Counted from the stretch's first letter, positions 35,102 through 55,937 are shown. The stretch: DNA of 64,000 nucleotides from an uncultured Pseudomonadota bacterium (GCA_963770835.1 CAVYRH010000004.1:166515-230514), one strand, 5' to 3'. The notes: generated from the sequence alone by a model not told the origin. Made by a program: numbers and translations.

Positions 35102-35114
35102 AGGGTGGTATGAA

Positions 35115-35846
35115 ATGTCCAACATTCACATGAGGGTCTACCGGGGCAACTCGGAGGGCGGACAACTCAAAGACTACAACGTCGAAGTGGACGAAGGCAT
35201 GGTGGTCTTGGACGCCATCCACCGACTCCAGGCCACCCAATCCTCCGACCTCGCCTGCCGCTGGAACTGCAAGGCCGGCAAGTGCGGAAGCTGCTCGGCG
35301 GAAATCAACGGTAAACCCCGTCTCATGTGCATGACCCGCCTGAACGAGTTTGAGGAGGGGGAAACTATCACGGTCGCGCCCATGAAAACTTTCCCCCTGA
35401 TGAAGGACTTAGCCACCAATGTTTCCTGGAACTACGAGGTCAACAAGCGCATCCCGCCCTTCACGCCCAAGGACGGGGCCGACTGGCATTGGGAACAAAG
35501 GGACGTGGACCGCATCCAGGAATTCCGCAAATGCATCGAGTGCTTCCTTTGCCAGAACACCTGCCACGTCCTGCGGGAGCACGACAAGAAGACCGCCTTC
35601 GCGGGTCCGCGCTTCTTTGCCCGCATCGCCTCCCTAGAAATGCATCCCATTGACGCCCTGGATCGCACGGGGCTCTTGAAGGACCAGCAGGGCCTGGGGC
35701 TCTGCAACATTACCCGTTGCTGCACCGAGGTCTGTCCCGAGGACATCCACATCACGGATAACGCCATCATTCCCCTGAAAGAACGGGTGGTCGACAAGTA
35801 TTACGACCCCCTAAGGCTCCTTTGGAACAAGGTGTTCGGAAAATAA
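35115..35846 (+). CDS. sdhB: Succinate dehydrogenase/fumarate reductase iron-sulfur subunit
   Basis: 2Fe-2S CRWNCKAGKCGSC, plus CIECFLCQNTC and CTEVCPEDIHI cluster motifs. Confidence 0.9.
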   Translation: MSNIHMRVYRGNSEGGQLKDYNVEVDEGMVVLDAIHRLQATQSSDLACRWNCKAGKCGSCSAEINGKPRLMCMTRLNEFEEGETITVAPMKTFPLMKDLATNVSWNYEVNKRIPPFTPKDGADWHWEQRDVDRIQEFRKCIECFLCQNTCHVLREHDKKTAFAGPRFFARIASLEMHPIDALDRTGLLKDQQGLGLCNITRCCTEVCPEDIHITDNAIIPLKERVVDKYYDPLRLLWNKVFGK

Positions 35847-36133
35847 AAAATTTCAGAAGCCCTGATCTTGAATCGGCCATCCACTGGCGTCCCTGGTCGG
35901 TGGCCATCGTCCTGGCAATCTTCCTCGCTGTTTTTTCCCTCACCGAGTTCAACCTGCTTCAATGGTCTTTTTCAATTGAATTGGGCTGTGCCGTATTGTT
36001 CGTCTCAGCGGGATGGAATATCTACGTCCTGCTGCGGGCTCGATCGGGCGGGAAGCCGGGCTTGAATCCCGAAATCGCCGACGGCCTTCTTCTCGTAGGA
36101 CTGATTTTGGTTTTCCTCGGAGCGTTTTTTTAA
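35822..36133 (+). CDS. Small membrane protein (hypothetical)
   Basis: 103-aa ORF with 3 predicted TM helices. Overlaps the sdhB end. Weak evidence. Confidence 0.3.
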   Translation: MEQGVRKIKNFRSPDLESAIHWRPWSVAIVLAIFLAVFSLTEFNLLQWSFSIELGCAVLFVSAGWNIYVLLRARSGGKPGLNPEIADGLLLVGLILVFLGAFF

Positions 36134-36190
36134 AACGAAGTTTGGGCTTCGTGGCCCTATGGGCGGGACCGGGGAGCCGCCACAGGCGGA

Positions 36191-37501
36191 CTAAACCTTC
36201 GCCGCGTTCAAGTCGGCGCAAAGAATGTAAAAGTCTCCCGTCGGATCCCCTACCACCATGGCCACAGTGACGCAGAGATGGCCGGAATTCATCGATAAGT
36301 AAGGATCGGTGAGGTAGCGATGTTGGGTGGGGGTTGAAAGAAGGGCGTAGTAAATCTCCCTCAATGAGTGATCGCTGCCCTTGGGCGAGGGGTGAAAAAG
36401 GATGCCCTTGCGCTCGGGAATGTGGTATTGACTGCAAAGGGTCTCGGTGACTTGGATTCCCTCAGCGTTCAAAAGATAAAGGCACTCCAGTGATTGGAAA
36501 TGAGGGAAAAGGGAAGGAAGTTCCGCCTCCCAATCCTCAACTGGCTTATTCGGAAGGCAGGCGGCGAGGGCCTCGGCGACCAACGCACAACGGTTTTTCA
36601 GGCCCCGATCCTTATTGGCTTTTCCGGTCATTCGGCGCTTAAACCGGGAGGCCAGGAACTGCATGCGGGATTTTCGGTTGAGCATGAAGATTGTGTTTTT
36701 TTTGTAATTCTTGGAAAAATACCGGCCCTGGACCAAGTCGGTCCCAAACTCCAGGGCCACCAAGGCATCTTCCTCACTCTCGATCCCGCTCGCAACCACC
36801 AAAATGCCCAGCGAATGGGCTCTTTTCAAAATGTTCATGAAAATCGCCTGTTTCTCCTTGCTGTTCGCCAGACCCCGGACCAGGCTTTCCTTCACCTTCA
36901 CCATGTCGGGGTTGAGCCGCAGGAGAATGTCCAGGTGCTGGGGGCTGCTGGTGACATCCTTGAGGGAGACCAGGAAACCGTAACCACGCTGGCTTTCCGC
37001 GAATTTCCATATTGATTGAAAGTCCGCTTGACCTGTAAGGGCGATTTGCACCACGATCCGGCGGGGATCGAGGGACCACTCGGCGGCTTGCCGGAACCAA
37101 TGGCCGGGTTCTTCCAGGGACTCCTCTAAGACGGAAGGTTCGGCATCCATGAACATCAGCAAATGCGGCGCCTGGGACTGGAGGGGGAAAAAAGTTTCAA
37201 GGGAATTTTGTAAGAAAAGGCGTTCCAGGGGCAGCCGAAGGTGGGAATCTGCCACGGTCATGGAACGGAATAGGTCCTCGGGTTCGAATAAACGGCTGGG
37301 GTCATCCGGATCCACGGCCCGGCGAACAGCCTCCAGGCCGATCACGCTCATTTTTTGAACCGATAGGAGGGGTTCGAAAAGGCAAGTGACGCTGCGCTGG
37401 TCTAAAATGTAAAAAGGATGGATGGGATAGGCGGCAACCAAGGCCTCTTCCAAAACTTCGTCCTTGCTTAAATCCTCCAGCTTCGGCAGTTCCAAAATCA
37501 T
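36191..37501 (-). CDS. EAL-domain protein (degenerate, likely non-catalytic) with a C-terminal uncharacterised domain
   Basis: EAL-family features: GLEAVRR (EAL-to-EAV), VKVKESLV, VASGIESEEDALVALEFGTDLVQGRYF. The DDFGTG loop is replaced by KDVTSS. A novel C-terminal domain of about 190 aa follows. Confidence 0.6.
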   Translation of the reverse strand: MILELPKLEDLSKDEVLEEALVAAYPIHPFYILDQRSVTCLFEPLLSVQKMSVIGLEAVRRAVDPDDPSRLFEPEDLFRSMTVADSHLRLPLERLFLQNSLETFFPLQSQAPHLLMFMDAEPSVLEESLEEPGHWFRQAAEWSLDPRRIVVQIALTGQADFQSIWKFAESQRGYGFLVSLKDVTSSPQHLDILLRLNPDMVKVKESLVRGLANSKEKQAIFMNILKRAHSLGILVVASGIESEEDALVALEFGTDLVQGRYFSKNYKKNTIFMLNRKSRMQFLASRFKRRMTGKANKDRGLKNRCALVAEALAACLPNKPVEDWEAELPSLFPHFQSLECLYLLNAEGIQVTETLCSQYHIPERKGILFHPSPKGSDHSLREIYYALLSTPTQHRYLTDPYLSMNSGHLCVTVAMVVGDPTGDFYILCADLNAAKV

Positions 37502-37949
37502 GTCTCAACCTCCCCGATCCTTCGTTAAGCTGACCCAGGGCTTGAATGTGCAATGGATATGCCAAGAAAAACATTATGAAGAAATCGTTTGTCGGATCTT
37601 CAACGAGGACAATTCCGTGGATCCCAAAGGACCGTGAAGTTTGCGGAGTTTAAAATTTTGAAAGTAAAATCGTTTGGCTTGTCGGAAAGGAAACAATGAA
37701 GGGATTTTTCATAAAACTGAAACGTTATCAGAGGAAATTATTCAAGATTTGAAAAGATTTTAGGCGGGCCGCCGAATATTTATACATCCGTCAGATTAAT
37801 TCGCCTAGGAAGCGGCTGAATTATAGGTCTATTTGTTCCACCCCGTGACGGGAAATCGGGAACAGGCTGAAATTTTTTAATATTAAAATTTGGACCGAAA
37901 AAATTTTGAAGAAAACCCTAGTGAGTCTTCCGGGGGATTTTAAATCCGG

Positions 37950-39230
37950 CTAAGGGCGGAGGTTGGCTCCGGACCGGTAAACCGAAATACTCCTCAATGG
38001 TTTGCCATCCTTGTAAAAAATAACAAAATACTTCCCGATGGGCATGTCCCGTCCCTGGTTGTCCTTACCGTCCCAAGTCACCCAACTTTCCCCTTCACCA
38101 ACGATCTTCTTATCAAAAATCAGCCGCAAGGGATCGCCCCTTTCGTTCACTACCTCAAGTTGGTATCGCCCGGCGCCGTCCTCAAAGGTCACGTAAATCT
38201 CGACCGGGGGGGTTTGAAAAACAATGGCTTGCGCCTTCACCAAGGGGAGAAGCCAGGTGGGGATGGGCGTGGGTTTTGGTGGGACGGGCGGCGGAACGGG
38301 CGTCCAAAGGGCGTGGTGTAGGGGAGTCCAAGTGGGGGTGGGACGCACCCAAACGTAAGTAGATGTGGGTCGGACCCTCACCCGCCGCACTGTGGGGACC
38401 GCCCGCACCGGCCTGGGGGTCGGAAGGGGTGTCGGGGTAGCGCGGCGCCGGGGCCGGAGGGTAGGCGTAGGAGAAGGTGGCAAAGGCGTTGGAGTCCATG
38501 TTGGAATCGCTGTTGGAATGAAGGTGGGCGTGAAAGTCTTGGTAGGGGTGAAAACTACGATGGGCGTCGCGGTGGGAACCCAAGCGGGCAGTTGGGCGAT
38601 CTGGCGCCAATAAAGGATGCCGCAGGCGCTGGTGGGCCCCGACCCAACGGCGGCACCGTCATAGGAAACATAGTGAATGACGAAGCCGGTTAAGGCGTCG
38701 GTGATCTGGGCGCAAGTCCATGTAGTGGTGGTGACAGGCTCTCCGGTCAGGGTGAAGGGATTGGAAGCCGGGTTGTAATTCAAATCCGTCCAGCTATTTC
38801 CCCGGGGGTCCACAGGCGGTGGAGCGCCTAGGCCACATTTGGAACCCCCCGTGGGGTCCCAATAAAGGGAAACCCCCGACTTGGCGGGGTTTTCATTGTT
38901 AACCACGAAAGGTTTGCCGCCCGCGCAGTCCACCTCCAACTCCCAGGAGCTGAAAACCAGCACGGGATTGACGTTGGTGGTCTTAAGGGCCAGGCAAACC
39001 TGGGGGCCCCTGAGCATGGGAAGGGGGACATCCACGCACAAACTTTCCGGTTTGCAGCCGGTGCTCAGGTTGCAATAATCCTTGGAGCCCAGGAAGGATC
39101 CGTTCAACCAAACCAAGGTGGTGTCGTCACCCGACACGCAAACCCGAGCGCTGACCGGCGCGCATTGGCCCAAAACGTAAAGAGGCCGCATCAGGCCTGT
39201 AAGAAGGACAATCCATAGGAATTTTTTCAC
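37950..39230 (-). CDS. Secreted surface protein with Cys-rich N-domain, PT linker and FlgD-Ig/T9SS-CTD-like C-terminus. Paralog of the giant proteins.
   Basis: GTG 39230 after an AAGGGGA ribosome-binding site. Signal peptide KKFLWIVLLTGLMRPLYVLG. PT array, then C-terminal VNERGDPLRLIF...WDGKDNQGRDMPIGKYFV FlgD-Ig motif. Confidence 0.65.
   Translation of the reverse strand: MKKFLWIVLLTGLMRPLYVLGQCAPVSARVCVSGDDTTLVWLNGSFLGSKDYCNLSTGCKPESLCVDVPLPMLRGPQVCLALKTTNVNPVLVFSSWELEVDCAGGKPFVVNNENPAKSGVSLYWDPTGGSKCGLGAPPPVDPRGNSWTDLNYNPASNPFTLTGEPVTTTTWTCAQITDALTGFVIHYVSYDGAAVGSGPTSACGILYWRQIAQLPAWVPTATPIVVFTPTKTFTPTFIPTAIPTWTPTPLPPSPTPTLRPRRRATPTPLPTPRPVRAVPTVRRVRVRPTSTYVWVRPTPTWTPLHHALWTPVPPPVPPKPTPIPTWLLPLVKAQAIVFQTPPVEIYVTFEDGAGRYQLEVVNERGDPLRLIFDKKIVGEGESWVTWDGKDNQGRDMPIGKYFVIFYKDGKPLRSISVYRSGANLRP
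38261..38594 (-). repeat. Pro/Thr codon tandem-repeat array (PT linker) in the third paralog
   Basis: PTATPIVVFTPTKTFTPTF...PTPTLRPRRRATPTPLPTPRP low-complexity region. Confidence 0.7.
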
Positions 39231-39695
39231 GGGTCCCCTTGGGTGAAGTTCTATTCTATCTGACTGATTCGCGCTGGGAGCTGAAGAAACAAAGAAACGC
39301 TGAAAGTTGTGGCAACTTTGAAAACGCTTCTGCGTTGGGTGTGGATGTTTTGTTTCGTGCGGCTTTGGAAGTAAAAGGGGAAATGAAATGCGGAAACATT
39401 CGAAGGCATCCCTCAAAGTTATCCCCGAAGTTGACGAAGACCCTGGCTTTCAATAATGGAAACGTCGTGTTGTGGTATGTACCAATGGGATGACTGAAAG
39501 CGCCAGGAAAGGAGTCCAAAACCGCTCTAAAAAGTCCACCGGGGCGGTTTAATATTAAGATTGGGTTATTTTCGGCCAAAATCGGGGGCTTTTAACCGGG
39601 GTTATCCATCCGTGTAACTCCACAGAAATCTCCTACCTACATAGTCCTCCCGCCGCATCCGTTAAGCCGCACCATAACCACTCGGGAGGCCATTT

Positions 39696-41189
39696 GTGGA
39701 AATATTCGGGCAACATTTAGGTTTGGGGCATGTTATTTTCCTACTTTTCGCGTTGGGGTTGGCGCTCAGCTTCGAGTTCGTCAACGGCTTCCACGATACA
39801 GCCAACGCCGTGGCCACTGTCATTTACACCCATACGTTGAAACCTTGGATCGCGGTGGTCTGGTCCGGCTTGTGGAACCTCACGGGCGTTTTGACTTCCA
39901 GCGGCATGGTGGCCTTCGGGGTCATCGCCCTTTTACCCGTGGAATTGGTTATCCACGTAGGTTCGGCCCCGGGCTTCGCCATGGTCTTCTCCCTGCTCAT
40001 TTCCGCCATTATCTGGAACGTGGGCACCTGGTATTTCGGCCTTCCGGCCTCCAGCTCCCACACTCTCATCGGTTCCATTATGGGTGTGGGTCTGGCCAAC
40101 GCCATGATGTCCCCCGGCCATGTTTTCGGTGAGGGGGTCAACTGGGCCAAAGCCAAGGATGTCGGGATGGCACTTCTCGTCTCCCCGATTGTCGGTTTTG
40201 TCTGCGCGGGCCTGCTTCTTTTGATCTTCAAGGCGCTTATCAAGCGAAAAGACCTTTACGAATCCCCCAAAAAAGACGCTCCACCCCCCCTCTGGATTCG
40301 AATCCTTCTCATTCTTACTTGTACGGGAGTCAGCTTCTCCCACGGTTCCAACGACGGTCAAAAGGGTATGGGACTCATCATGCTGATCCTTATCGGCGTA
40401 GTCCCGGCCACCTTCGCGGTTAACCTAGACACCAGCCAGCAGGCCCTCCTGGATCTCGCAGCCACCACCCAAACCATCTCCTTCCAAATGGACAAGCACT
40501 CCCCCGGCGCGGCCATGGCGGGCGGCCCGGTGGCGGACCAGATGATTTCCGACTACATTAAAGCCTCGGGCAAAATTTCAAATGACACCTTCGCTGCCAT
40601 CGGAACCAAATGCAGGGAAATTTCCGCCGAATTGGAAGGTAAGAAAAGCCTGAATGAACTCTCGGAAGACGGCCGCAGGGGCCTGCGAAATGACCTTTAC
40701 CTGACATCGGAAGCCTTAGGCAAAGCTTTGAAACAGAACTTGTTGACCGATCCAGCAGAACAAAAGTCGGTTAAGGATCTGAAAGGACACATGGACAAAC
40801 TCACTAAGTTCATCCCGGTCTGGGTGAAATTCGCCGTGGCCTTGGCTCTGGGATTGGGGACCATGATCGGCTGGAAGCGCATCGTGGTGACGGTGGGCGA
40901 AAAAATCGGGAAAGCCCATTTGACCTATGCACAAGGGGCCTCGGCAGAACTGGTGGCCTTTGCCACCATTCAAGCGGCGGACATTTGGGGCCTACCTGTC
41001 AGTACAACCCATATCCTCTCTTCCGGCATCGCCGGCACCATGGCGGCCAACCGGTCGGGGTTGCAGTCGAAGACCCTGATGAATATTCTCATGGCCTGGG
41101 TCCTCACCCTGCCGGTTTGTATGCTCCTGGGTGGCGCTATCTTCGCCTTCACCTTGAACGTGGTTTTCCACGCGTTTGGGATTAAATAA
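39696..41189 (+). CDS. pit: Inorganic phosphate transporter, PiT (PHO4) family
   Basis: Duplicated GFHDTANAVATV / GSNDGQKGMG motifs. 497 aa with a large central loop. Confidence 0.88.
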   Translation: MEIFGQHLGLGHVIFLLFALGLALSFEFVNGFHDTANAVATVIYTHTLKPWIAVVWSGLWNLTGVLTSSGMVAFGVIALLPVELVIHVGSAPGFAMVFSLLISAIIWNVGTWYFGLPASSSHTLIGSIMGVGLANAMMSPGHVFGEGVNWAKAKDVGMALLVSPIVGFVCAGLLLLIFKALIKRKDLYESPKKDAPPPLWIRILLILTCTGVSFSHGSNDGQKGMGLIMLILIGVVPATFAVNLDTSQQALLDLAATTQTISFQMDKHSPGAAMAGGPVADQMISDYIKASGKISNDTFAAIGTKCREISAELEGKKSLNELSEDGRRGLRNDLYLTSEALGKALKQNLLTDPAEQKSVKDLKGHMDKLTKFIPVWVKFAVALALGLGTMIGWKRIVVTVGEKIGKAHLTYAQGASAELVAFATIQAADIWGLPVSTTHILSSGIAGTMAANRSGLQSKTLMNILMAWVLTLPVCMLLGGAIFAFTLNVVFHAFGIK

Positions 41190-41204
41190 GGCTCGAAAAT
41201 TCTC

Positions 41205-41558
41205 TTGAAATCCGGGTCGAGGGGGAAAAAAGGGCGCGGGAAGGACCCGAAAGCCTCTCCACGCCTCAGCCTGGCGGGGCAGGCGATTAACTTCATTTCC
41301 TTGGTGGAGCATCTCCCTTACGGCGCCAGCATGCTACAGGAAAAAAAGGTAGCACGGGGCGCCATGGGTTTTGGAATCCTGGTCATGGCCGTTGGGGCCG
41401 CCATCTTTACCATCGGCTGGTGGCAAAAATGGACCTGGCTCGTCGAGACCGCTTTTTTTATCACGTTGGTAGGCTGGATGATGGTCATCCTGGGGTTCGC
41501 CTTCGGTGTAGTGGGATGGGCCGCCCGGACCCTCCCATTTAAAATCCGTGGGAAATAA
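41205..41558 (+). CDS. Small 2-TM membrane protein (hypothetical)
   Basis: ORF downstream of pit. The likely start is MLQEKK (41331). Weak evidence. Confidence 0.3.
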   Translation: MKSGSRGKKGRGKDPKASPRLSLAGQAINFISLVEHLPYGASMLQEKKVARGAMGFGILVMAVGAAIFTIGWWQKWTWLVETAFFITLVGWMMVILGFAFGVVGWAARTLPFKIRGK

Positions 41559-41671
41559 AAGAAAATTGACCTCAGCCTTGAACCCGTTGATTGAGAGGCC
41601 CCAACATCCTTAGCCGGCAAGGGATGGTGTTATAATGGACCTTCTATTGATCTTGTGAGAGGCCCATCTGC

Positions 41672-41899
41672 TTGAAAAAGAGACTCCACATAACCCTGTT
41701 TTTTAGCGCAACTGCCCTTTTGATGGGTTTGCAATCCTGCAACACCAACAACAATAACCCAACGGTCCCCGCGCCTTTGCCGACGAATACCTCGACTTTT
41801 ACCGTTACTCCCACCCACACGATCACGAATACCCCTACCCCTAGGCCCACCCATACCCCAACCCAAACTCCGACCTCCACTCCCACCGCGACCCCTTAA
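41672..41899 (+). CDS. Small PT-repeat lipoprotein (hypothetical)
   Basis: TTG start. Signal peptide with lipobox-like GLQSC, then a pure N/T/P repeat tail. Convergent with giant gene 1. Confidence 0.45.
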
Positions 41900-41981
41900 A
41901 TTTAAATAAGGCGCGCATCGCCAACCTTTTCTCCCTAAACCCCATCTGACGGAACTTTTTAAAGGCCACCCCATCCCCGGC

Positions 41982-43316
41982 TTAGTGACGGACTAGCAGC
42001 TTGGCGGTTTTATAGCCCACATGCCCATTGGGCCCCTCCACGTCCACGACCGCGATATACAGCCCGCTGGCCATTCCTCCCGCGTTCCAAACCGCCTGAT
42101 CCGCTCCAGTGCTCCCTTGGGTAGTCCCCACCAGTTCACCGGCCACGTTGTAAACCCGCACTTTGAGGGTGAATCCCTGGGTTGAATTCACCGTGAAGAC
42201 CGCCGTAGTTTGCCCTCCCGCCAGCACATTGGGCTCCACCAGCAGTTGCCCGGGGACCATTCCCCTTGAGCCGTCCATCACTGATACCTGGCGAGTGACA
42301 ACCTGGTCATTGGGCCCGCTCAGCCAGGAAGCTTCCACGTAGTATTGGCCGTTCGTCACCATGCCGCCCTGGTCATTGGTGCCGTCCCAAACCAATGTCA
42401 CGCTTCCGCCGGAAACAGACACATTGATGGTGATTTGCGACGATGAGGTGGAAGAGGCCGAGACGACACCGGGCGCGACCGTATTGGAGGATAAGTCCAA
42501 GGACTGGATGGTGCTGTTGGAGTTCGACACGATTCCCTGGTAGAGGTGTTTCACGATCTCACCGGCCTCGTTATAAACGGCGACTGAAAGGGTGGAGAGG
42601 GAGCGGTTGACGCTGACGTTCTGGGTGACGGAGGTGACAACACCCAAAGAATCGGTGCTTTGGACCTTGATGAAATACTGGCCGCTGGTGACCTCCGTGC
42701 CATTCTGGGCCGTGCCATCCCAGGAAGCCACCGTCGCATCGAGGATGGAGACGGAAGTGGAAGAAACCTGGTTGGTCAAGGACATGGAGGAGAGTTGGAA
42801 GGAGGAGATGGTTTGGGCGAAGTTCTGGACCAGGAGGGTTTTCACCAGTTCACCCGCCGAATTGTAGACGGCGACCTGGACGGTGATGGGGAAAATTACC
42901 GTCACCGGCGCGGTGACGGACTGGGGCTGTCCTCCCGTCTCTTGCACCTGGGCGTTGTTGAGGAGGACGGTTTGTTCCACCAGGCTGGAAGAAATGGTCA
43001 CGGTGTAGGGAAGCTGGTAGACGCCGGGGGCCAGGGAAGGGAAGGCCCAGGTGAGGACGGGGCCGGTTTGACCCATGGTTTCGCCCGCCACGGCAGGCGA
43101 GGGTTGGCCCATCCCCGCGAAAACCACCTGCGCGGGCAGGGTATCCGTAACTTGGACGTTGGAGGCTGTGGAACCCGAGACGGTCAGCAGGATCCGGTAA
43201 ACCACGGTATCACCGGGATGGGCTGTGGTTTCGGAAGCGATCTTTTGGATTTGGATTCCCGGAGTGGGGGTCGCCGTGTTGGTGGGCGTGGAGGTATAGG
43301 TGGAAGTGGGAGTGAA
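41982..43316 (-). repeat. Paralogous duplication unit A (C-terminal DUF11 plus 3x FlgD-Ig), about 85% identical to 47119-48453
   Basis: The protein C-termini of about 445 aa align nearly colinearly. Nucleotide similarity is visible at the 3' ends of both genes. Confidence 0.8.
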
Positions 43317-46300
43317 AGTGAAGGTGAGGGTCGGTGTAAAGGTGTCAGTGGAAGTGGGCGTAAGCGTAGTGGTGGAGGTCGGTGTAAAGGTCGATGTCCG
43401 GGTGGGCGAGTCCGTCGGCGTCGAGGTGGCGGTCATGGTTGGCGTAAGGGTGGGTGTGGAGGTGTCCGTAACCGTCGCGGTTGGGGTCGCGGTGAAGGTT
43501 GAGGTTAAGGTGGATGTGACGGTGGCCGTTGGCGTGGCAGTCGAGGTCAAGGTAGCGGTGGAGCTGGGGGTGAAAGTTGGGGTGGCCGTAGGAGTGGCCG
43601 TTTCCGTAGACGTGAAAGTGAGGGTGGGCGTGGAAGTCGCCGTAAAGGTGGGCGTGGCGGTGGGCGTAGAAGAAGGCGTGGTGGTGGGGGAATTCGTCGG
43701 CGTATCCGTGGGAGTGGAGGTGGGCAGGGGGGTTGTGGTATTCGTGGGCGTGTTGGTGGCCGTGGCGGTGGAAGTGTTGGTGGGAGTTAAGGTGGGTGTG
43801 GAGGTCGGCGTCGCGGTCGCAGTGGATGTGGGAGTGGCTGTGGGGGTGTAAGAGGGGGTTGGGGTCATCGTGCTAGTGGGGGTGGCCGTCGGGGATGGGG
43901 TCGGGGTATGGGTGACGGTATTCGTGGCAGTGGCTGTCGCAGTGTTGGTCGGAGTTAAAGTCGGCGTCGTGGTCGCCGTGAAAGAAGGTGTCGAAGAAGG
44001 CGTAGGCGTGGGGGTATTCGTCGGCGTATTCGTGGGGGTGGAGGTGGGCAGAGGGGTTGTGGTGTTCGTGGGCGTGTTGGTGGCCGTGGCGGTGGAAGTG
44101 TTGGTGGGAGTTAAGGTGGGTGTAGAAGTCGGAGTCGCTGTGGCGGTGGAAGTGGGGGAATCCGTGGGGGTACGGGTAGCTGTCAGTGTCGTGGTGTTCG
44201 TCGGAGTGGCCGTCGGGGACGGGGTAGGGGTGTTGGTGGCGGTATTTGAAGGGGTATTGGTCGCGGTAAAGGTGGAAGTCATCGTTGCCGTGGAAGTGGC
44301 CGTGGAAGTGGGCGTGGAGGAAGGCGTGGCGGTGGGGGAATTGGTCGGCGTATTCGTAGGGGTGGAGGTGGGGATGGGCGTTGTGGTGTTTGTGGCCGTC
44401 GGGGTAGCTGTGGCAGTGGCGGAACTGGTCGGGGTCAGGGTGGCCGTGGCGGTTGAAGTATTCGTCGGCGTGTTGCTCGGCGTGTTGGTTGGTGTGTTCG
44501 TCGGGGTGGCCGTAGGGCTGTTGGAAGGGGTTGGGGTGGGCGTGTTGGTCGGAGTGTTGGTGGGCGTATTGGTCGTGGTGGCTGTGGGGGTGTTGGTGGG
44601 TGTATTGGTGGGAGTGTTGGGCAGGGTGTTGGTCGGAGTGTTGGTGGGGGTATTGGTTGGAGTGGCCGTGGGGGTGTTGGTTGGCGTTAAAGTCGGCGTA
44701 TTGGTGGGGGTTGGGGTATCGGTGACTGTCGGCGTGTCCGTGGGCGTGGCCGAGGGGGTGTTGGTGGGCGTGCAGGTGTATCCCACGTTATTGGTCACGG
44801 CGTTGGATAAGAGAGTGGAAGGCTGGGTCTCAAAATTTTCCTCCTCGGCGATATTGGTCACAACCCCGGAACAGGTTCCCGCCGGCAGGGCTCCGACGGT
44901 GACACTGAAGGAAAGGGTTCCCGAAACGCCCGCTGCCAGGTAGTTGATCTGCCAGAGCAAATCCTGCCCCACCAGGGCGGTGACAGGCTGGTAGGGATTG
45001 CTGGTGACCGAATTGGAAAGAAGGTTTGTCCCGGTCGGGATCGTGTCGTTGATTACAACGCCGTCGATGGCGGAGGTGCCGGTATTCTTATAGGCCAGGG
45101 TGTAAGTGATGGTCTGTCCCTGGTTCACCTGGCCGGCCGGGTTGTTGGACTTGGCCAGGGTAATGCTGGGGTTGGGGCAGGAAATCCACTGGGGACAGTC
45201 GAAGTAGCCCCATCCATAATGGCCGCCTTCGCCGCAGTCATATTCGCTCACGACGATGGTGCATTGCTGGCCCGCGTATTGGCACAGGTTGAAGGTATAG
45301 GGGGTCCAGGGAAAAACCCCCCAGTTCGTCCCGTTGGAGGGGTTCACCTGGCAGCCGCCCGCCGCGCCGACCGTTCCGGCGTTGTTCCCCACCAAGCCGT
45401 CCAGGGTCACCAGGCCCGACCCGACCAGGTACTGCCAATTGAGCAGCAGGTCGTAAACCTGCAGGCCGCCCGCGCCGCATTGGCCCCCGCCGATATAAAC
45501 CTGGACCTCCAGGTAGGCGTCGTCGTTGGGGTTGCCCGGATTGTTGAGGTAGTGGTAATTCTCGAAAACACCCGCCAGCTCAAACGACAGGCAGCAAGAA
45601 CCGTTGGTTGGAACCGTTGAACTGGTGCAGACCCGGGCGTAATCGCCATGGTTCGTGTCCCCCCGGCCCGAGAAAAGCTGGTAGGCGCTGGGCTGGCCGG
45701 CCGGGACCGTGTTTAGGAGCCCGTTCGAGTTGGGGGCTATCCCGGGACCCACGGGGACGGCCACCGGGTTGCATGCTACGTTGGCGCCCGTATTAATAAG
45801 GGAGGTCCAATTCGTAAATTCGCTTGAACAGGCATTGGGCCAGGGGATGGGAGTGAAAGTCGGCGTAAAAGTGGAGGTGGAAGTAAAGGTTGGCGTGGGA
45901 GTGTGGGTGAAGGTTGGAGTGAAAGATGCCGTCGGGGTAGAGGTGGGCGTGGCCGTATCGGTCAGGGTGAAAGAGGAAGTGGGCGTGGAAGTGGAGCTAA
46001 GGGTGGCCGTACTGGTAGGAGTGAAGCTGGCCGTCGGCGTGAAGGTTGAAGTCGGAGTGGAGGTGCCTGTGTTTGTCGGTGTCACCGTCGGGGAATTGGA
46101 GGCTGTGGGAGTGGGTGTGGCGGTATTCGTGGGAGTGACCGTCGCGGTGTTGGTTGAAGTCGGAGTCTGCGTTGAAGTTGATGTGGAAGTGGGACTGGGG
46201 GTAGCCGTGCCGGTCGGGGTGTCAGTGAAGATGGCCGTATTGGTCAGCGTGAATGTGAAGGTCGGAGTGGGGCTGGGCGTGTCCGTTGGGGACGCCATGG

Positions 46301-46429
46301 GCGTCGAGGTTGAAGTATCGGTGGGGGAATCGGACGGGGTTAAGGTCTGGGACCTCACCGGCGCGACCGCGAGGAAAGCCAGGGTCGTCAAGATCCATAA
46401 GACCGATCTTACTGGGGACAGTTGTATCA
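41982..46429 (-). CDS. Giant secreted surface protein: signal peptide, PT array, beta-sandwich N-domain, DUF11, 480-aa PT linker, DUF11, 3x FlgD-Ig/T9SS-CTD-like modules
   Basis: ORF open to 46544. The probable start is ATG 46429 (MSEMIQL..) after AGAAGGA. DUF11 motif [23 protein letters not shown].. and C-terminal VRVYNVAGELV...GLYIAVV. Confidence 0.85.
43320..44780 (-). repeat. Long PT-linker codon tandem repeat (ACN-CCN)n, about 1.45 kb
   Basis: Encodes TPTNTPTATPTNTPTNT... The plus strand reads as GVGV artefact ORFs. Confidence 0.85.
45842..46337 (-). repeat. N-terminal PT/ST low-complexity array of giant protein 1
   Basis: SPTDTSTSTPMASPTDTPSPTPTFTFT... directly after the signal peptide. 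Confidence 0.75.
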
Positions 46430-47118
46430 TCTCCGACATTTCAGTCCTTCTTTCGGATTCTAAAAGCCTCTCTGAAACGGGCCTGTTGATTGAACGGAAT
46501 CGGGGGTGTCCAGCGGCAACCAGACGGGCGATTAGGAGGAACAAATGGAAAGATATTTTCTTTTGTTTTTTGCATTAGATAGTTCGAAAAACCACCAAAG
46601 TAATGTGGAAATTCTTCCAACATTCCCTTTTAAATGGGAACGCCCGGAATGGACGCGAATAGGGAATGACGCGATTTCATTCTGAAATCTTCCCGTCTTT
46701 CTGGTTTCCAAAAACGCCTCCTCCATTCGGTTCGCCGGAAATTTTCCGGTGGACACGGAAAAGGGTGACATTTCGACTCTCTCCCCTAAATGAGCACGTT
46801 CAATGCCAGTTCAAAGCGAGTCATGTTTCAAAAAAGAAAATTTGTCCTGGGAAGCGGGTGGAGTAAAACGAGTAAAAATGTCTTAAACACGTCCGAGTTG
46901 TATTTTTTTTGAAAAAGATAACGGCAAATTAATTTGGACGGGAAATTCCTCCTTTTGAAACCGATTGAAATTTTTACATCCGCCGGTTTTTTTAACATCC
47001 CACAGGTGGTATCTAAGAGAACTAGTAGAAAAACCCCTTAAATCGGTTATTTCCCCCCGAATCCGCCTTTATCGTGTTCATCGGTGTTTCACTGACCCCA
47101 TTTTTGCCTGGGTTTGGT

Positions 47119-48453
47119 TTAATGCCGCACCACCAGCTTGGTGGTTTTGTAGACGACATGCCCATTTGGCCCCTCCAAGTCCACCACGGCGATATATAAC
47201 CCGCTTGCCATTCCCCCCGCGTTCCAAACCGCCTGGTCCGCCCCGGAAGGCCCCTGAACCGCCCCCACCAGTTCGCCAGCCACGTCATAAACCCGCACCC
47301 TCAGGGTGAAACCTTGGGCCGAATCCACCGTGAAGACAGCGGCTGTTTGTCCGCCGGCCAGTACATTGGGCTCCACCAACAGCTGACCCGGAACCATCCC
47401 CCGGGATCCGTCCACCACCGATACCTGCTGGGTGACGACTTGGTCGTCCCCGCCGTTCAACCAGGAGGCTTCCACGTAATATTGGCCGTTGGTCACCATG
47501 CCGCCCTGGTCATTGGTGCCGTCCCAGGCCAGCGTCACGCCGGCCCCGGCCATGGCGACCAAAACCGTAATGGACGAGGAGGAAGGAGAAACGGTAGGGG
47601 AACCAGGAGTAACCACGGTGGAGGACAAAACCACGGACTGGATGGTATTGCTGTTGCTTGGCACGATCCCCTGGTAAAGATGTTTCACCACTTCGCCCGT
47701 CTCGTTGTAAACGGCCACGGAGAGGGTGGAAAGGGATCGGTTGACGCCGACGGTCCGGGTGACGGTGGTGACTACGCCGAGGGAGTCGGTGCTTTGGACC
47801 TTGATGAAATACTGGCCGTTGGTGACCTCCGTGCCGTTCTGGGCCGTGCCGTCCCAAGTTGCCACCACGCCAAGGATGGAGACGGCGACGGAGGAAACCT
47901 GGTTGGTCAAGGACGTAGAGGAGAGTTGGAAGGAAGAGATGGTTTGGGCGAAGTTCTGAACCAAGAGAGTTTTCACCAATTCACCAACCGAATTGTAAAC
48001 CGCGACCTGGACGGTGATGGGAAAAACCACAGTGACCGGCGCGGTGACGGACTGCGGCCGGCCACCGGAGAAGACTACTTGGGCATTGTTTAAGAGCACG
48101 GTTTGCTCCACGAGGGTGGAGGAGACGGCGACCGTATAGGGCAGCTGGTAGACACCGGGGTTCAAGGAAGGGAAAGACCAAGCGAGGACAGAGCCGTTTT
48201 CGCCCATAGCCTCACCCACCACGGAAGGCGAGGGCTGGCCCAGGCCCAAGAAAGCAACCTGAGCGGGCAGGGTGTCGGTAACTTGGACGTTGGAGGCGGT
48301 GGAGCCGGAAACGGACAGGAGGATTTTGTAGGTGAGGGTGTCCCCCGGGTGGGCGGAGGTTTCGGAGGCGGATTTTTGGATTTGGATGCCGGGCGTGGGG
48401 GTGGAAGTGTTGGTGGGAGTGGGCGTAAAGGTGAAGGTGAGGGTGGGGGTGAA
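47119..48453 (-). repeat. Paralogous duplication unit B (matches 41982-43316)
   Basis: Same as above. Confidence 0.8.
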
Positions 48454-49950
48454 GGTATCCGTGGGAGTGGGCGTGAGCGTGGGTGTGAAGGTGGGTGTGA
48501 AGGTCGGGGTTTTCGTGGGAGTGGCGCTTGGAGTGGGCGTATCGGTATTCGTGAAGGTATAGGTGGGTGTAGGGGTTGGGGTGTTTGTGGGTGTAAGGGT
48601 TGGGGTGTTGGAAGAGGTGTTGGTGGGGCTGTTGGTCGGGGTGTTGGTGGAGGTAGAGGTGTCCGTCATGGTGGGCGTGGATGTGGAAGTGGCCGTGGCG
48701 GTTGACGTTGGGGATAAAGTGGGAGTCCAGGTTAAGGTCACGGTGGGTGTTAAAGTGACTGTGAAAGTATTGGTGGCAGTGCCGGTATTGGTGCTCGTGG
48801 CCGTGGCGGTGAAGGTCGGCGGACAGCCAACGACCGTATTCGTAACGGCGTTGGAGATGAGCCCGGCGGTTTCCAGGTCGGACTCAACGGCGGTGTTGGG
48901 GATGTCCCCACAAGTGGAGCCAGCCACCACCTGGAAGGAGACGGTCCCGGTGTTGCCCGGATAAAGGTATCCGACGTCCCAAATCAGGTCATTGCCGATC
49001 ATGGCGGTGGCGGGGATGCTGGGACTGCTCCCCATGGACCCGGGGACGAAGGCCGTGCCCGTAGGGACGGTATCGTTGATCACCACTCCGTCGATGGGCG
49101 AGGTGCCCGTATTGGCGTAAGACAAGGTATAGGTGATGGTTTGGCCCTGGTTTACCTGGCCCGTAGGGCTATTGGCCTTAGTGAGGGTAATGCTGGGGGA
49201 GGGACAGACCCCCCAACTGACGTCGTCCAAATAGCCCAGGCCGAAATGCCCTCCCGCCACGCAGTCGTAATCGGTGACGCGCAATGTGGCCTGCTGGCCC
49301 GCGTATTTGCAGAGGTTGATGGTGTATTGGGTCCAGGGAAGGTAGCCGAAATCGTTGCCGCCATCATTGCCACCCCCCCCACCGCCTGCGTCCTGGCAGA
49401 AGCCGGTGTTTCCGACTCCCGTCAAGCCATTCACCACCACCTGGCCCAAGGTATTGGACCAGGTGTAGCGCAAGCTGGCCACCGTCGTGCCCCCGACGAG
49501 GACTTCCACTAAAAGATAAGTGTCCCCAGCCAGGTCGCCTTGCAAGTAATGGTGGTCCTCAAAAACAGCGGCGAACCAGAAAGAAAGGCAGCAGGTACCG
49601 TCAGTCGGCACCGTATCGGTTTGATAGATCTGGGCCCAGTCGGCGTGGTTATTGTCGCCACGGGCCGAAAAGAGCTGGGCGGCGTAGTTGCCGGTGTGGA
49701 CCTGGTTCAAACCGGCGGGGGCCAGGGGGCCGGCGGAATCGGGCGCGACGCCCACGGGAACCACGGTGACACTGGGCGGGGCGCAAACTACGTTGGGGCC
49801 CGAGGCGATCGCGGTGGTCCAGCCGGTCAGGTTGCCCGTTTCAAAACCGGGGTTCACCCAGGCTTGCGCGCTGGAGAAACCCGAGGCCGTGAAGAGCAAT
49901 GGCAATAGGAAGGTTCGCGAGGAAGAGAAAAGACTCATTAGTTTTGACAT
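47119..49950 (-). CDS. Giant secreted surface protein, paralog 2: signal peptide, beta-sandwich N-domain, DUF11, PT linker, DUF11, 3x FlgD-Ig/T9SS-CTD-like modules
   Basis: 943 aa. Signal peptide ..GFSSAQA. N-domain [10 protein letters not shown] (CBM-like). Same architecture as gene 1 but with a short PT linker. Confidence 0.88.
48438..48828 (-). repeat. PT-linker tandem repeat in paralog 2
   Basis: [49 protein letters not shown]... Confidence 0.8.
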
Positions 49951-50494
49951 ATCCCTGCGCCTCGGCGTTTAACAAATGGTTTTTTCAAAAAAGTTAAGTT
50001 TGTGATTATGAGAATTTTTTTTGGACCAACATCACTGGCTATTGCGACCCTACCACCGGAAAATGAAAGAGTACAAGCGGCCATTCCAAAATTTTACCGG
50101 GAAGTAAAAATATTTTTGCATCCAGGGAGTTAAACGAAATGGAGTGCCGTAGATTTGTCCGAAATTTTTTTTGACCCTGATCACGCAGTAAAACGAAAGT
50201 AAATGGCGTGCTTAACGATTTTAGAAAAAACGATACCGGTTAATTTTCGAAAAAAACGTTTTCGGATTTTTTCTCCGCGAACAGCCGGCAAAAAATCGAA
50301 AGTTAATCGCCTTTAAATCGGAGTGCTGCGAAAATTATTTCACTGGTTTTTTAATGACATGATGGGAAGGATTCCTTTGGGTGGCGGCATAATTCACCGA
50401 TTTTTAATGGGTAATTTCCCGTTGACGGAAACTAAGGGTTGACACGAAGATAAAAGCCGAAAGATCGGCCCTTCGGCCCATTAGGAGAAAGTCC

Positions 50495-50905
50495 TTGGCG
50501 GGTTATTCCCAAACACCCCTTCTGAAGAAACTTGGGATCAAAGGCGAGTTCCGCATGGCTGTCCTTAACGCCCCCCAGGACTATTTCAAATGGTTGGGCC
50601 AACTGCCGCCGGGCGTCCAAGTTGTTTCTTTTCCCAAGGGAGAAATGGATTTCATCCATTTTTTTACCAAGAACCGCAAGGAATATGAAAAGAGATTGGT
50701 GGACTTTAAAAAAGCCGTAGCGCAGGACGGTATGATCTGGGTTTCCTGGCCCAAAGCGGCCTCCAAAGTGCCAACGGACGTGACGGAAAAGGTGGTACGT
50801 GAATACGCCTTAAAGATCAGCCTGGTGGACATCAAGGTCTGCGCGGTGGATGAAACCTGGTCGGGTTTGAAACTGGTGATTCCGGTGAAAGACCGTAAAA
50901 AATGA
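50495..50905 (+). CDS. DUF3052-family protein
   Basis: MAGYSQTPLLKKLGIK...WVSWPKAASKVPTDVTEKVVREYALKISLVDIKVCAVDETWSGLK matches DUF3052 conservation. Confidence 0.7.
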   Translation: MAGYSQTPLLKKLGIKGEFRMAVLNAPQDYFKWLGQLPPGVQVVSFPKGEMDFIHFFTKNRKEYEKRLVDFKKAVAQDGMIWVSWPKAASKVPTDVTEKVVREYALKISLVDIKVCAVDETWSGLKLVIPVKDRKK

Positions 50906-51651: not shown

Positions 51652-53874
51652 GTGGGAGAACGATCTTTTTTGGGCTATAACTATTTGAGTTTTGTTGAGC
51701 ATCCAAAGCGGCTAAGGAATTTTTTGGAATTTTTCAAAAACACCCAGGTGAAAAAAGCGGCTTTTCCGGCAGTGTTTGTTTTAGCCGCATTGGGCCAATG
51801 GTTCATGGCCCAAAACCAGGCAACGGCAACCGTTTTTCCGGCGCTGTTTTTTTACGCTTTCGCGCTTTATCTTTGGTTTCTCACTTTAAAAAAAGAGAAA
51901 ACCGGACTCCTGGATGAAAAGCCCCTGACGGCCCGGCTGGAATGGGTGTTGTTTGGCTTTATCCTTTTAATAGCTTTTTTTTTAAGGGTTTATGAGCTTG
52001 ATCAAATCCCTTCGGGCATCTACCTGGATGCCTCAGGGCCCGCCCTTTACGCCCTTAAAATGCTTCACGAGCATTTTAAGCCCCCCTTTATGCTTCCCGC
52101 CTTCGCGGCCAATCCTTCGTATTTGGTGTATCTTTTGGCAGTTTGGTTCCGTTGGTTTTCCCCGACCCAGGTGAACCTGTTCCTGTTTTACGTTGTTTTC
52201 GCCATGGCCGCTTTGCCTTTCATTTATTGGACTTTTCGCCAATTGGCAGGCCCCCAGTCCGCTCTTTTAACCGTTTATTTCATCGCCGTCATGCGGTGGC
52301 ACATGGTTTTCAGCCGAATCGGCTTTCGGGGAATCCAGGTTCCCTTTTACATGTTTGGAACCCTGGCGTTTTTTCTCTACGGTTTAAAACTCAAGAAAGG
52401 TTGGCCTTTTTTCCTTTCCGCGCTGTTTTTAACAGGCGGGTTATACACTTATCAATCCTTTAAAGCATTCCCTTTAATGATGTTGATCCTGTTGGTTTAC
52501 GAGCATTTCAAAAACCCCAAAACGCTGAAAGCCCTGGCGGTTCCCCTCCTGGCATCGGCCGCTTTGTGCGGTTTCTTCACGGTTCCCTTACTCCATTACT
52601 GGAACCAGCAGGGCAGCCTGGGAACCCGGGAATCGCAGATTTTTATCGGGAAAGAGGTGGTCCAGGAGAAAAGCCTGCGGCCCTTGGCGGAGAAAGCCCT
52701 GCAAACCGCCTTGATGTTTAACCGAAAGGGCGAAGAACAACCGCGGCATAATTTCAAAGATCACCCAATCCTCGACGATGTCACGGGGCTCTTTTTTATT
52801 TTGGGTTTTTTCCTCGCGCTTTGGAAATTCCGGCAAAAGCCTTATTTTTACGCGGTTTGCGGCTTTTTCGTCATGAGCCTGCCCGGCCTGCTTTCCAGCG
52901 AGGAAACCCAATCTCATCGGATGCTGGGCGCCCTCCCTTTCGCGGCTTTTTTCGCGGCCGGCGCGGTTTTAACCTGGCGCAAGGGCATGGCCGAGCGTTT
53001 TCCTTCCTTTCGTCCCTGGGTTAACGGCCTCGTGATGGGGCTTCTGATTTTCGCGGCCATCGAAAATATCAAAACTTATTTCGTGGACCAGGCAGGGGAT
53101 TATGACTGTTGGAGGGATTTCAACATCGAGGCTACGACCGTTGGGAAAACCGTCGTCCAGCACCCGAACACGGTCTTTTACCTGGCGCCGGCCTTTTACG
53201 ACCATTTCACGGTTCAATACCTGGATTATTTCGAGTCCAACCGCGTCCATTTACTGGATTTGGGGGAAATGAACCATCTACCTCTGGATACCCGCCTTTC
53301 CAAGATTTGCTTCGTCCTGGACGAGGGAAAAAGTCCGACTTTGGCCTTTTTGAAAGGCCTCTATCCTCAGGGACAGGAAGAGCCTTTTAAGGACCGGTAC
53401 GGGAAAACACTCGCGTTTTTTTATTACGTTTCGGGCCAGGTAAAACCGATTTCGTTTCAAAAGGGCCTCCAAAGATGGGAAAACCCTAATGAAAACTCTC
53501 CCGACTTGGTCTCCACCGGACTTGTACAAGACCCCCTCATTAATTTCACTAATATCGGCGATTTGGGGGTCAGCCATCCGCCGGTTTTGGCGGTTTGGAA
53601 GGGGAAAATTCGTATACCGGCAACGGGTTCTTACGGTTTTCTCATTCTCACCCAAGATAAAGGAGAATTGGATTTGGATGGCCGGAAAGTGGTGGAGAAC
53701 CTTCAAGGTGGGGAAGAAGTGATCCGCTTGACGGCAGGGTGGCATTCCGTCGAGCTAACCTGCCAGAGGGACAATAACCCGGATGTGGCCCTGGATTTCC
53801 ACCTTCTCTGGAAAAAGCCCGGTAACCTCAACTATGAAGTCGTTCCGAATTCGGCTTTCGGGAAAATCCGATAA
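51652..53874 (+). CDS. GT39/PMT_2 (ArnT-like) membrane glycosyltransferase fused to a C-terminal PA14 domain
   Basis: Polytopic N-terminal 450 aa with PMT/ArnT-like loop motifs. C-terminus GSYGFLILTQDKGELDLDGRKVV.. is PA14-like. Confidence 0.6.
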   Translation: MGERSFLGYNYLSFVEHPKRLRNFLEFFKNTQVKKAAFPAVFVLAALGQWFMAQNQATATVFPALFFYAFALYLWFLTLKKEKTGLLDEKPLTARLEWVLFGFILLIAFFLRVYELDQIPSGIYLDASGPALYALKMLHEHFKPPFMLPAFAANPSYLVYLLAVWFRWFSPTQVNLFLFYVVFAMAALPFIYWTFRQLAGPQSALLTVYFIAVMRWHMVFSRIGFRGIQVPFYMFGTLAFFLYGLKLKKGWPFFLSALFLTGGLYTYQSFKAFPLMMLILLVYEHFKNPKTLKALAVPLLASAALCGFFTVPLLHYWNQQGSLGTRESQIFIGKEVVQEKSLRPLAEKALQTALMFNRKGEEQPRHNFKDHPILDDVTGLFFILGFFLALWKFRQKPYFYAVCGFFVMSLPGLLSSEETQSHRMLGALPFAAFFAAGAVLTWRKGMAERFPSFRPWVNGLVMGLLIFAAIENIKTYFVDQAGDYDCWRDFNIEATTVGKTVVQHPNTVFYLAPAFYDHFTVQYLDYFESNRVHLLDLGEMNHLPLDTRLSKICFVLDEGKSPTLAFLKGLYPQGQEEPFKDRYGKTLAFFYYVSGQVKPISFQKGLQRWENPNENSPDLVSTGLVQDPLINFTNIGDLGVSHPPVLAVWKGKIRIPATGSYGFLILTQDKGELDLDGRKVVENLQGGEEVIRLTAGWHSVELTCQRDNNPDVALDFHLLWKKPGNLNYEVVPNSAFGKIR

Positions 53875-54948: not shown

Positions 54949-55885
54949 ATGCAAAGCCAAAAGACAACCTATCCCCCCAGTGTGTGGCTGGCCCTGGCCT
55001 TGGTCTATCTCGTTTGGGGTTCCACCTATTTGGGCATTCACTTCGCTATCCAGTCCATCCCTCCCTTTCTCATGGCGGGAGCCCGCTTTTTAACCTCCGG
55101 CCTGATCCTTTTCGGCTTCGCCGTTTTATACGGCCTGGCTTCCTCCAAGGGATTTCCCCGGATCACCTGGGGCCATTGGAAGTCTTCCGCCGTCATCGGT
55201 TTTTTCCTGTTGCTCATCGGCAACGGCGGCGTGTGCTGGGCCGAACAAAAGGTGCCCTCCGGCATGGCGGCCCTCCTCGTGGGGACGGTGCCCCTTTGGA
55301 TGGCACTCTTGGAATGGACCTGGAAAAAGGGGTCAAGGCCGGGGCCCCAGGTTTGGATCGCCTTACTGCTGGGGTTCACGGGGATCGCCGTCTTGGTTCT
55401 GCTCCGGCCCGGGGATGGGCCCTTGCGGGTGGACCCCCTTTGGGCCCTCTTGCTGGTGGGAACCTCGCTGGCCTGGTCCTGGGGCTCCCTTTACGTCCGG
55501 TCCGCGTCGCTCCCTTCCTCCGCCCTCCTCGCCACGGCCCTGGAAATGATCGCTGGGGGCTTTCAGCTATTGGTGGCTGGGTTCCTGCTGGGGGAACCCA
55601 GCCGGTTCCACTTCTACCAATTGACCACCTCCTCGGTAGAGGCCTGGGTTTACCTGACGCTGGTGGGTTCGCTGATCGGTTTTACCTCTTAATATTTGGG
55701 TCCTGCAAAAGGCCACGCCGGGCTTGGCCTCTACTTATGCCTTCGTGAACCCCGTCATCGCGGTCTTCCTGGGCTGGCTTTTGGCCGGGGAGGCCCGCTC
55801 GCCTTCCCTTTCCCTGGCGGCGGCCCTGATCGTGACGGCTGTCATCCTGATCACCCGCGCCTCCCCCCGAAACCGGGGGAATTGA
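54949..55885 (+). CDS. EamA/DMT-family transporter. Apparent +1 frameshift at about 55687-55691.
   Basis: The first 247 aa end at ..IGFTS then TAA. The conserved C-terminal half (NIWVLQKATPGLASTYAFVNPVIAVFLGWLLAGEA..) continues in the +1 frame to TGA 55885. Confidence 0.8.
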
Positions 55886-55937
55886 GCGGTTTTTAATTCC
55901 CACGGTTTCCCCGGCATTTCATTAAAATCCCTCCAGG

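Follow-up and report, generated by a model that had tools for sequence, protein, structure and literature searches.

The Pro/Thr-rich linkers of cellulases and cellulosomal proteins are often O-glycosylated, and adhesins of the Cnm type possess Thr-rich glycosylated repeat regions, which are modified by the Pgf system. The DUF11 domain, which has been renamed CLIPPER in Pfam, is a CnaA-like stalk domain of fibrillar adhesins in which an intramolecular isopeptide bond is possible, and this bond is missing in some family members (PMC12617251). Here, we describe two neighbouring genes, gene 1 and gene 2, that join DUF11 domains to long proline/threonine (PT) tracts. They lie in a 64,000-nucleotide stretch of DNA from an uncultured bacterium (GCA_963770835.1 CAVYRH010000004.1:166515-230514), referred to in its full length as the window, which by sequence comparison we assign to the candidate phylum FCPU426. 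This phylum has no cultured member and is represented by six genomes in a 2024 review (PMC11382960). With moderate confidence, we read the two gene products as modular exported proteins composed of a head, a spacer and a tail, which are directed to the cell surface by their C-terminal domain (CTD) and have an adhesin-like character.

The pair of genes with PT stalks, to which an earlier note had drawn attention, is a real observation: two adjacent uninterrupted open reading frames (ORFs) on the minus strand share one domain order, as that note had said (Table 1). In gene 2, a signal peptide is followed by a jelly-roll head, a first DUF11 domain (DUF11a), a PT linker, a second DUF11 domain (DUF11b), two FlgD-Ig modules and a CTD-like terminal domain. 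Gene 1 has the same order and an additional PT array at its N-terminus, which the note had also recognized. DUF11 (PF01345) matches twice in each protein, with 62.4 bits in gene 1 and 57.6 bits in gene 2 (cut-off 24.6), and the NCBIfam model TIGR01451 reaches 64.4 bits in gene 2 (cut-off 24). FlgD_ig (PF13860) passes its curated threshold of 27 bits with 45.6 and 44.3 bits, and the two internal modules, Ig1 and Ig2, are clearly of one kind (homologous by hhalign, E 1.4e-25). The NCBIfam equivalog models for FlgD match the Ig region alone and yield 33 bits against cut-offs of 230-383, so these are not full-length FlgD proteins. Between the two genes, BLASTP aligns the C-terminal 429 residues with 80% identity, slightly below the first estimate of about 85% over 445 residues, and the N-terminal 386 residues with 48%. 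The central PT linkers, put by the note at 480 and 130 residues and a fourfold difference, measure 515 and 154 residues by composition window, a 3.3-fold difference.

An isopeptide bond may be present in DUF11a of gene 2. Its Lys (in ITLTK) and Asp (in VINDT) align with the motifs VDVVK and LNDTL of 9ifr_A, which we take, by residue numbering, to contain K715 and D748 of 9IFR; the alignment is weak (E 0.81), and the third residue would be an Asn (in SNAVTN), picked out by eye.

The argument for surface export centres on the terminal domain, which makes up the last 92 residues in each of the two proteins and in every relative aligned. In gene 2, it features the motifs PN, VYDxAGELV and ASGLYI and a C-terminal K..KLVVRH, and the family as a whole ends in K-x-[AVL]-[VIL]-[VIL]-[RKH]. 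An AlphaFold2 model of the domain (predicted local distance difference test score 93.3) has seven strands, which form an immunoglobulin (Ig)-like β-sandwich that can be superposed on solved type IX secretion system (T9SS) CTDs. In the structure ranking, PorZ is third and the NucA CTD in its translocon complex fourth, followed by RemA (15), RgpB (16), RemZ (31) and PorU (33). A search of the PDB with the domain profile returned just six matches, of which the PorU CTD is the best (E 0.013) and the RemZ CTD another. Within the family, Por_Secre_tail matches 17 of 23 CTDs at E ≤ 0.01 (best E 1.6e-10) and FlgD_ig eight of the 23. Compared with the Ig modules, the terminal domain has one more strand, at its N-terminus, in which a Pro-Asn pair is invariant. 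Finally, the last ~130 codons, which include the CTD, are the most constrained stretch of the genes (dN/dS, the ratio of non-synonymous to synonymous substitution rates, 0.05-0.10). We conclude that the terminal domain, which by sequence profile and predicted fold comes nearest to T9SS type-A sorting domains, belongs to the type-A CTD superfamily as a divergent representative and resembles a sorting signal in its behaviour; that genes 1 and 2 encode T9SS cargo is a step further, which we infer from sequence.

In the mechanism that we propose, the protein would cross the inner membrane by the Sec pathway, after which a T9SS or T9SS-like machine would read the terminal domain as a signal for export across, and attachment to, the outer membrane. 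While the tail would remain close to the envelope, the putative glycan-binding head would be held far from the cell by the PT tract, which is probably O-glycosylated and extended. The outcome would be a protein similar to a fibrillar adhesin, with a disordered stalk, that would be suited to plant or microbial polysaccharides in peat.

Several observations weigh against sorting by a T9SS-type signal. For Por_Secre_tail (PF18962), genes 1 and 2 score 21.2 and 21.6 bits, below the cut-off of 27; for TIGR04183, gene 1 scores 18.0 bits (cut-off 23), and gene 2 is unmatched at E ≤ 1. Thus, of the profile hidden Markov model searches that the earlier note had proposed as a check, those for DUF11 and FlgD_ig came out above cut-off, and those for the two sorting domains below it. 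Foldseek against the PDB found generic Ig and fibronectin type III sandwiches only, and the evidence from the fold is therefore method-dependent. The terminal domain is also a distant homolog of Ig1 and Ig2 (hhalign E ~1e-8) and could therefore be a third structural repeat. T9SS components were found neither among the 34 ORFs of the window scanned with Pfam and the 14 scanned with NCBIfam, nor in the gene calls of related loci (L081-L087) totalling ~140 kb, a sample that is far too small to argue for the absence of a T9SS from FCPU426. In the literature searched, the system is placed in Bacteroidota or the Fibrobacterota-Chlorobiota-Bacteroidota (FCB) superphylum only (PMC10202324, PMC12398890), and we found nothing that ties FCPU426 to a T9SS, to gliding or to FCB; the note was right to speak of a lineage not usually associated with this system. 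Lastly, when a set of 5.8 billion proteins was searched with the CTD profile (E ≤ 1e-3), named T9SS cargo of other phyla was not among the matches. The search yielded 19 relatives, mostly fragmentary, and therefore does not inform us about the taxonomic spread of the domain.

These points can be accommodated by an alternative that we regard as possible, if rather doubtful, namely that export proceeds by Sec and the proteins are afterwards either released or retained by other means, such as a type II secretion system or non-covalent binding to the envelope. The three C-terminal Ig-like modules would then be structural or binding repeats rather than a sorting signal, and the likeness to CTDs would reflect a shared ancestry of FlgD-Ig and Por_Secre_tail. 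The sub-threshold scores of both proteins, the homology of the CTD to Ig1 and Ig2, the generic Foldseek matches and the lack of T9SS genes in the window scans, in a phylum from which the system is not known, all speak for it. On the side of sorting stand the family-wide Por_Secre_tail matches, the extra strand and the extreme C-terminal position of the domain. The choice between the two raises a question that can be checked: does FCPU426 use T9SS-type sorting, or does a different system read the same tag? We consider it improbable, and put it forward as a speculation, that a T9SS-type CTD serves FCPU426 as a general tag by which many modular proteins are sorted and, if SprA, PorV, PorU and GldKLMN are lacking, that the tag is read by a different, undescribed system for outer-membrane export or attachment. 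If this were true, the genome-specific homogenization of the whole four-domain tail, described below, would be co-evolution with that system.

At the opposite end of the proteins, the heads have no family match in Pfam or NCBIfam scans and adopt a jelly-roll fold resembling that of characterized carbohydrate-binding modules (CBMs). The motif SxRGD (gene 2 residues 68-72, window ~49735-49749) is invariant in all aligned heads and is accompanied by conserved His, Asp and Cys positions; together, these may make up a site at which the jelly roll binds a metal or a ligand. Judged by their sequences, the heads of genes 1 and 2 belong to different subfamilies. Between the two genes, the jelly rolls are 45% and the DUF11a domains 58% identical, whereas gene 1 and the relative P0051 share 71% and 68%, respectively. 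Still closer to the gene 1 jelly roll are those of P0049 (89%) and P0053 (79%), both of which share its N-terminal PT array. The gene 2 jelly roll is most similar to P0042 (87%), followed by P0043 (77%), P0047 (65%) and the single family gene of the syntenic locus L082 (58%). Both head subfamilies are old, each with its own relatives elsewhere.

The tails tell a different story. Those of genes 1 and 2 are sisters in the tail tree, with 80-87% identity per domain (72% for Ig2), or 81% over 427 aligned codons. The next closest tail, that of P0005, is 72-73% identical to either of them, and the tail domains of P0051, whose head is so similar to that of gene 1, are only 34-49% identical to those of gene 1. 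A single tree cannot reconcile the head relationships with sister tails, and the tail must therefore have been exchanged or converted between copies. Nucleotide homology between the genes (blastn) begins within the PT linker, at positions 43393 and 48506 and at a depth of about 40 codons, and these last ~40 codons of the gene 2 linker are homologous to the end of the gene 1 linker; the junction of the exchange therefore lies within the PT linker. Recent gene conversion between the tails was considered and ruled out by their synonymous divergence (dS 0.83) and nucleotide identity (78.6%). The exchange is therefore old, and the proposal of the earlier note that the copies recombine holds for the incongruent heads and tails and the junction in the linker, but not in the form of recent conversion. 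Selection on the tails has been strongly purifying since then (dN/dS 0.14, against 0.33 for the heads), which fits a co-adaptation to a common envelope or secretion partner.

The same logic of interchangeable parts is evident in the relatives. An exhaustive profile search found 906 of them at E ≤ 1e-3, of which 45 remained at E ≤ 1e-30. Full-length proteins such as P0050, P0051, P0055 and P0067 have the domain order of genes 1 and 2, and in the loci L081, L083, L084, L085 and L087 the four-domain tail is joined through PT tracts to unrelated heads, among them one that is DUF1080-like and a Cys-rich one of the kind seen in the nearby gene 3. The PT tracts comprise 482 residues in L085b, 592 in both L084a and L084b, 702 in L085a, 1023 in L081, 1028 in L083a and 1561 in L083b, a protein of 2504 residues. 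The most extreme of these genes (L083 11678-19189, L083 5315-11200 and L081 4736-11200) encode proteins of 1962-2504 residues with 1023-1561 consecutive PT residues. The head/tail pattern of the window is sharper in another genome, where L083a and L081 carry tails with 96% identity although their heads are unrelated. Such tail homogenization is not universal: the tails of L084, compared with one another, reach only ~45% identity, and so do those of L085. Tandem sets of two to four family genes are common in related loci. In L082 (1-11205), three blocks follow one another: the family gene (A), PHO4 with a small membrane protein (B), and an EAL-domain gene with a homolog of gene 3 (C). In the window (35088-50905), they occur in the reverse order C-B-A with their orientations kept, and there are two family genes where L082 has a single one. 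We considered an inversion between the two loci and rejected it, since the strands of the blocks are preserved and two blocks have swapped places. As a whole, the family is undescribed, yet assembled from known modules by known design rules; in the literature searched, we found nothing on surface proteins or secretion in FCPU426.

It was further proposed in the earlier note that these are rapidly diversifying adhesins or surface-layer (S-layer) proteins whose repeat DNA promotes recombination between copies. On this view, they would be a contingency-type family in which PT repeat DNA drives frequent length change and recombination. In favour of this, PT linkers range from 154 to 1561 residues among the relatives, family genes occur in tandem sets, the head/tail mosaic junction falls into the PT linker, and the central linker of gene 1 contains an internal duplication (a 324-nucleotide unit in 2.3 copies, 79% identical, with a longest internal exact repeat of 59 nucleotides). 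We nevertheless think that this scenario is unlikely. Contig L086, which derives from another sample and is 99.7% identical to the window over 17 kb, differs from it by one intergenic single-nucleotide polymorphism (SNP) in the 13.5 kb between 41081 and 54661. Genes 1 and 2 are base-for-base identical in the two assemblies, gene 3 shows no difference, and, because this SNP is the sole difference in that interval, all PT arrays are identical as well. The anticipated length polymorphism is therefore not seen in this one comparison, and linker length is unchanged between near-identical strains, although over long times it clearly changes. The DNA of the PT arrays is degenerate, with a 12-nucleotide periodicity that is cryptic in the central linker of gene 1 and with units that are ~60-65% identical and written in mixed synonymous codons; the longest exact run common to arrays of different genes is 21 nucleotides. 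A larger repeat exists only in the central linker of gene 1 among the arrays of the window. At the protein level, the gene 2 linker consists of 44% Thr, 16% Pro and 10% Ser. The PT DNA is hence a plausible but weak substrate for recombination, and the old tail exchange and purifying selection also speak against rapid diversification. Nothing supports a surface-layer role, the only match to an S-layer family being a chance-level match of the PT tract in NCBIfam. Inverted repeats of at least 40 nucleotides, including those of an invertible promoter, were not found between 37500 and 51700.

It is very improbable that the long PT arrays are artefacts of assembling or annotating low-complexity sequence, or that the tandem arrangement has such an origin, given that both genes are uninterrupted, that the contig from the other sample is identical but for one intergenic SNP and that full-length proteins of the same order occur in several clusters formed at 50% identity, even though related long-read contigs show frameshifts and spurious antisense calls over PT regions. 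The PT arrays are thus not assembly artefacts. Annotation is a different matter: opposite genes 1 and 2, plus-strand ORFs rich in Gly and Val, of up to 357 residues, extend over 42660-43502, 43300-43851, 43870-44943, 45709-46578 and 48103-48964. They are by-products of the ACN and CCN codon runs in the PT arrays. In public contigs of relatives, gene callers report such antisense ORFs and fragment the real genes, and the family is therefore systematically mis-annotated in public metagenome-assembled genomes (MAGs).

Table 1. Genes 1 and 2, their domains and other features of the window (aa, amino acids or amino-acid positions)
Feature	Position	Strand	Size	Description	Basis
Gene 1	ORF 41982-46544 (TTG 46544); 41982-46439 from probable ATG 46439	minus	1485 aa (from ATG)		ORF, Pfam, NCBIfam, BLASTP
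Gene 1 signal peptide	46350-46439	minus		Sec-type, plausible	read from translation
Gene 1 N-terminal PT array	45843-46349	minus	~170-183 aa (aa 25-207)	directly after the signal peptide	composition window
Gene 1 head	45168-45842	minus		jelly roll
Gene 1 DUF11a	44790-45167	minus
Gene 1 central PT linker	43272-44789	minus	~515 aa (aa 551-1065)		composition window
Gene 1 tail	41985-43271	minus		DUF11b, two FlgD-Ig modules, CTD-like domain
Gene 1 CTD-like domain	41985-42260	minus
Gene 2	47119-49950	minus	943 aa	exact protein also on independent contig L086	ORF, Pfam, NCBIfam
Gene 2 signal peptide	49870-49950	minus		Sec-type, mature protein starting at W	read from translation
Gene 2 head	49201-49869	minus		CBM-like β jelly roll, no Pfam family
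Gene 2 DUF11/CLIPPER a	48826-49200	minus			PF01345 57.6 bits, TIGR01451 64 bits
Gene 2 PT linker	48403-48825	minus	~154 aa (aa 376-529)		composition window
Gene 2 DUF11b	48025-48402	minus			Pfam, family alignment
Gene 2 FlgD-Ig 1	47737-48024	minus			Pfam, family alignment
Gene 2 FlgD-Ig 2	47398-47736	minus			Pfam, family alignment
Gene 2 terminal domain	47122-47397	minus	92 aa	like T9SS type-A CTD
Gene 3	37950-39230	minus	426 aa	signal peptide, Cys-rich head, PT/P-rich linker, one FlgD-Ig-like module
75-aa ORF	41672-41899	plus	75 aa	lipoprotein-like signal (LMGLQS|C), then PT tract only	translation, domain scans
EAL-domain gene	36191-37501	minus		c-di-GMP phosphodiesterase-like
YfhO protein gene	3566-5677	minus		multi-pass GT-C-type protein
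GT-C-type protein gene	51652-53874	plus		multi-pass protein, PA14-like end
nuoF	11953-13233

Two further ORFs with PT tracts lie close to the pair. Gene 3, which the note had counted as a third paralog, shares with genes 1 and 2 the type of linker and one FlgD-Ig-like module, the latter at 25.1 bits and thus below the cut-off of 27, but it differs in its head and has neither DUF11 nor CTD in domain scans. The head of L083b, the 2504-residue protein with the four-domain tail, matches that of gene 3 at 30% identity (E 2e-18). By these comparisons, gene 3 is a modular relative only and not a full paralog, with a head type unlike those of genes 1 and 2. For the 75-residue ORF, described in the note as a tiny PT-only lipoprotein, the lipoprotein signal and the PT tract are evident, but it is not called as a gene in L086, and the syntenic locus L082 has no counterpart. 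It may be a very small lipoprotein or a gene remnant, and its status as a gene is uncertain. Taken together, the interpretation given in the earlier note is partly supported.

Some of the neighbouring genes could be connected with these proteins. Two encode multi-pass proteins of the glycosyltransferase C (GT-C) type: one has a weak match to PMT_2 (17 bits) and a PA14-like end (22 bits), the other, of the YfhO type, a weak C-terminal match to the adhesin glycosyltransferases PgfM1/PgfM2. Both are candidates for the O-glycosylation of the PT tracts; a conserved linkage to family genes was not found in the other loci examined. The EAL-domain gene adjoins gene 3, an adjacency that is retained in L082, and a regulatory link to the surface proteins is possible. 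Promoter and terminator scans remained at or below chance level, and the tRNA and Rfam scans of the window were empty.

The window is chromosomal in content, as it includes the nuo operon and genes for pyruvate:ferredoxin oxidoreductase, succinate dehydrogenase, PHO4 and CstA. Its NuoF protein shares 93% identity with that of MAGs named candidate division FCPU426 and 78-87% with that of other FCPU426 and unclassified MAGs from peat, bog and soil, and on this basis the lineage is taken to be FCPU426. The next best NuoF proteins are those of Leptospiraceae (~70%), with other phyla at ~53%; this proximity suggests either a phylogenetic affinity or a transfer of the nuo operon. In the comparison with L086, two further segments stand out. 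The phosphate transporter gene PHO4 (40010-41080) contains 16 differences within ~1.07 kb, ahead of the 13.5 kb with one SNP, and this cluster looks like a short imported recombination tract. Farther along, a 903-bp segment (54977-55880) is missing from L086. It encodes an EamA/DMT-like membrane protein, whose gene is apparently frameshifted (ORFs 54949-55692 and 55696-55896), and past this segment the identity between the two assemblies falls to 96.7%.

For FCPU426, a little-known uncultivated phylum of peat and soil, the two genes offer an initial functional entry point to the cell surface. They are also a clear example of cassette evolution, with interchangeable heads, a genome-specific tail and, between them, a disordered PT joint that reaches 1561 residues in relatives.

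Their design can be compared with that of four known systems. As in the linkers of cellulases and Cnm-type adhesins, a PT-dominated spacer of low complexity separates a module of the carbohydrate-binding type from the remainder of the protein. Unlike cellulase-type linkers, however, the spacers are ~5-50 times as long as a typical enzyme linker, there is no catalytic domain, and glycosylation is only proposed. With the DUF11/CLIPPER fibrillar adhesins (PMC12617251; 9IFR), the proteins share an arrangement of head, stalk and anchor, in which a signal peptide and a distal binding domain are combined with CLIPPER domains and, at the C-terminus, a sorting domain, but they have two CLIPPERs only, owe their length mostly to the disordered PT tract rather than to tandem folded repeats, and their isopeptide bond is predicted from a weak alignment. 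Like the T9SS type-A cargo of Bacteroidota (RgpB, mirolase, NucA, RemA), they combine an N-terminal Sec signal peptide, read from the translation, with a domain at the extreme C-terminus. They depart from this cargo in their sub-threshold HMM scores, their FCPU426 lineage, the fixed cassette of a CLIPPER and two FlgD-Ig modules that precedes the CTD, and PT spacers of hundreds of residues. Lastly, two internal modules match FlgD_ig, as in the hook-capping protein FlgD; here, where the FlgD N-terminal domain is missing, these modules would instead serve as extracellular Ig-like spacers.

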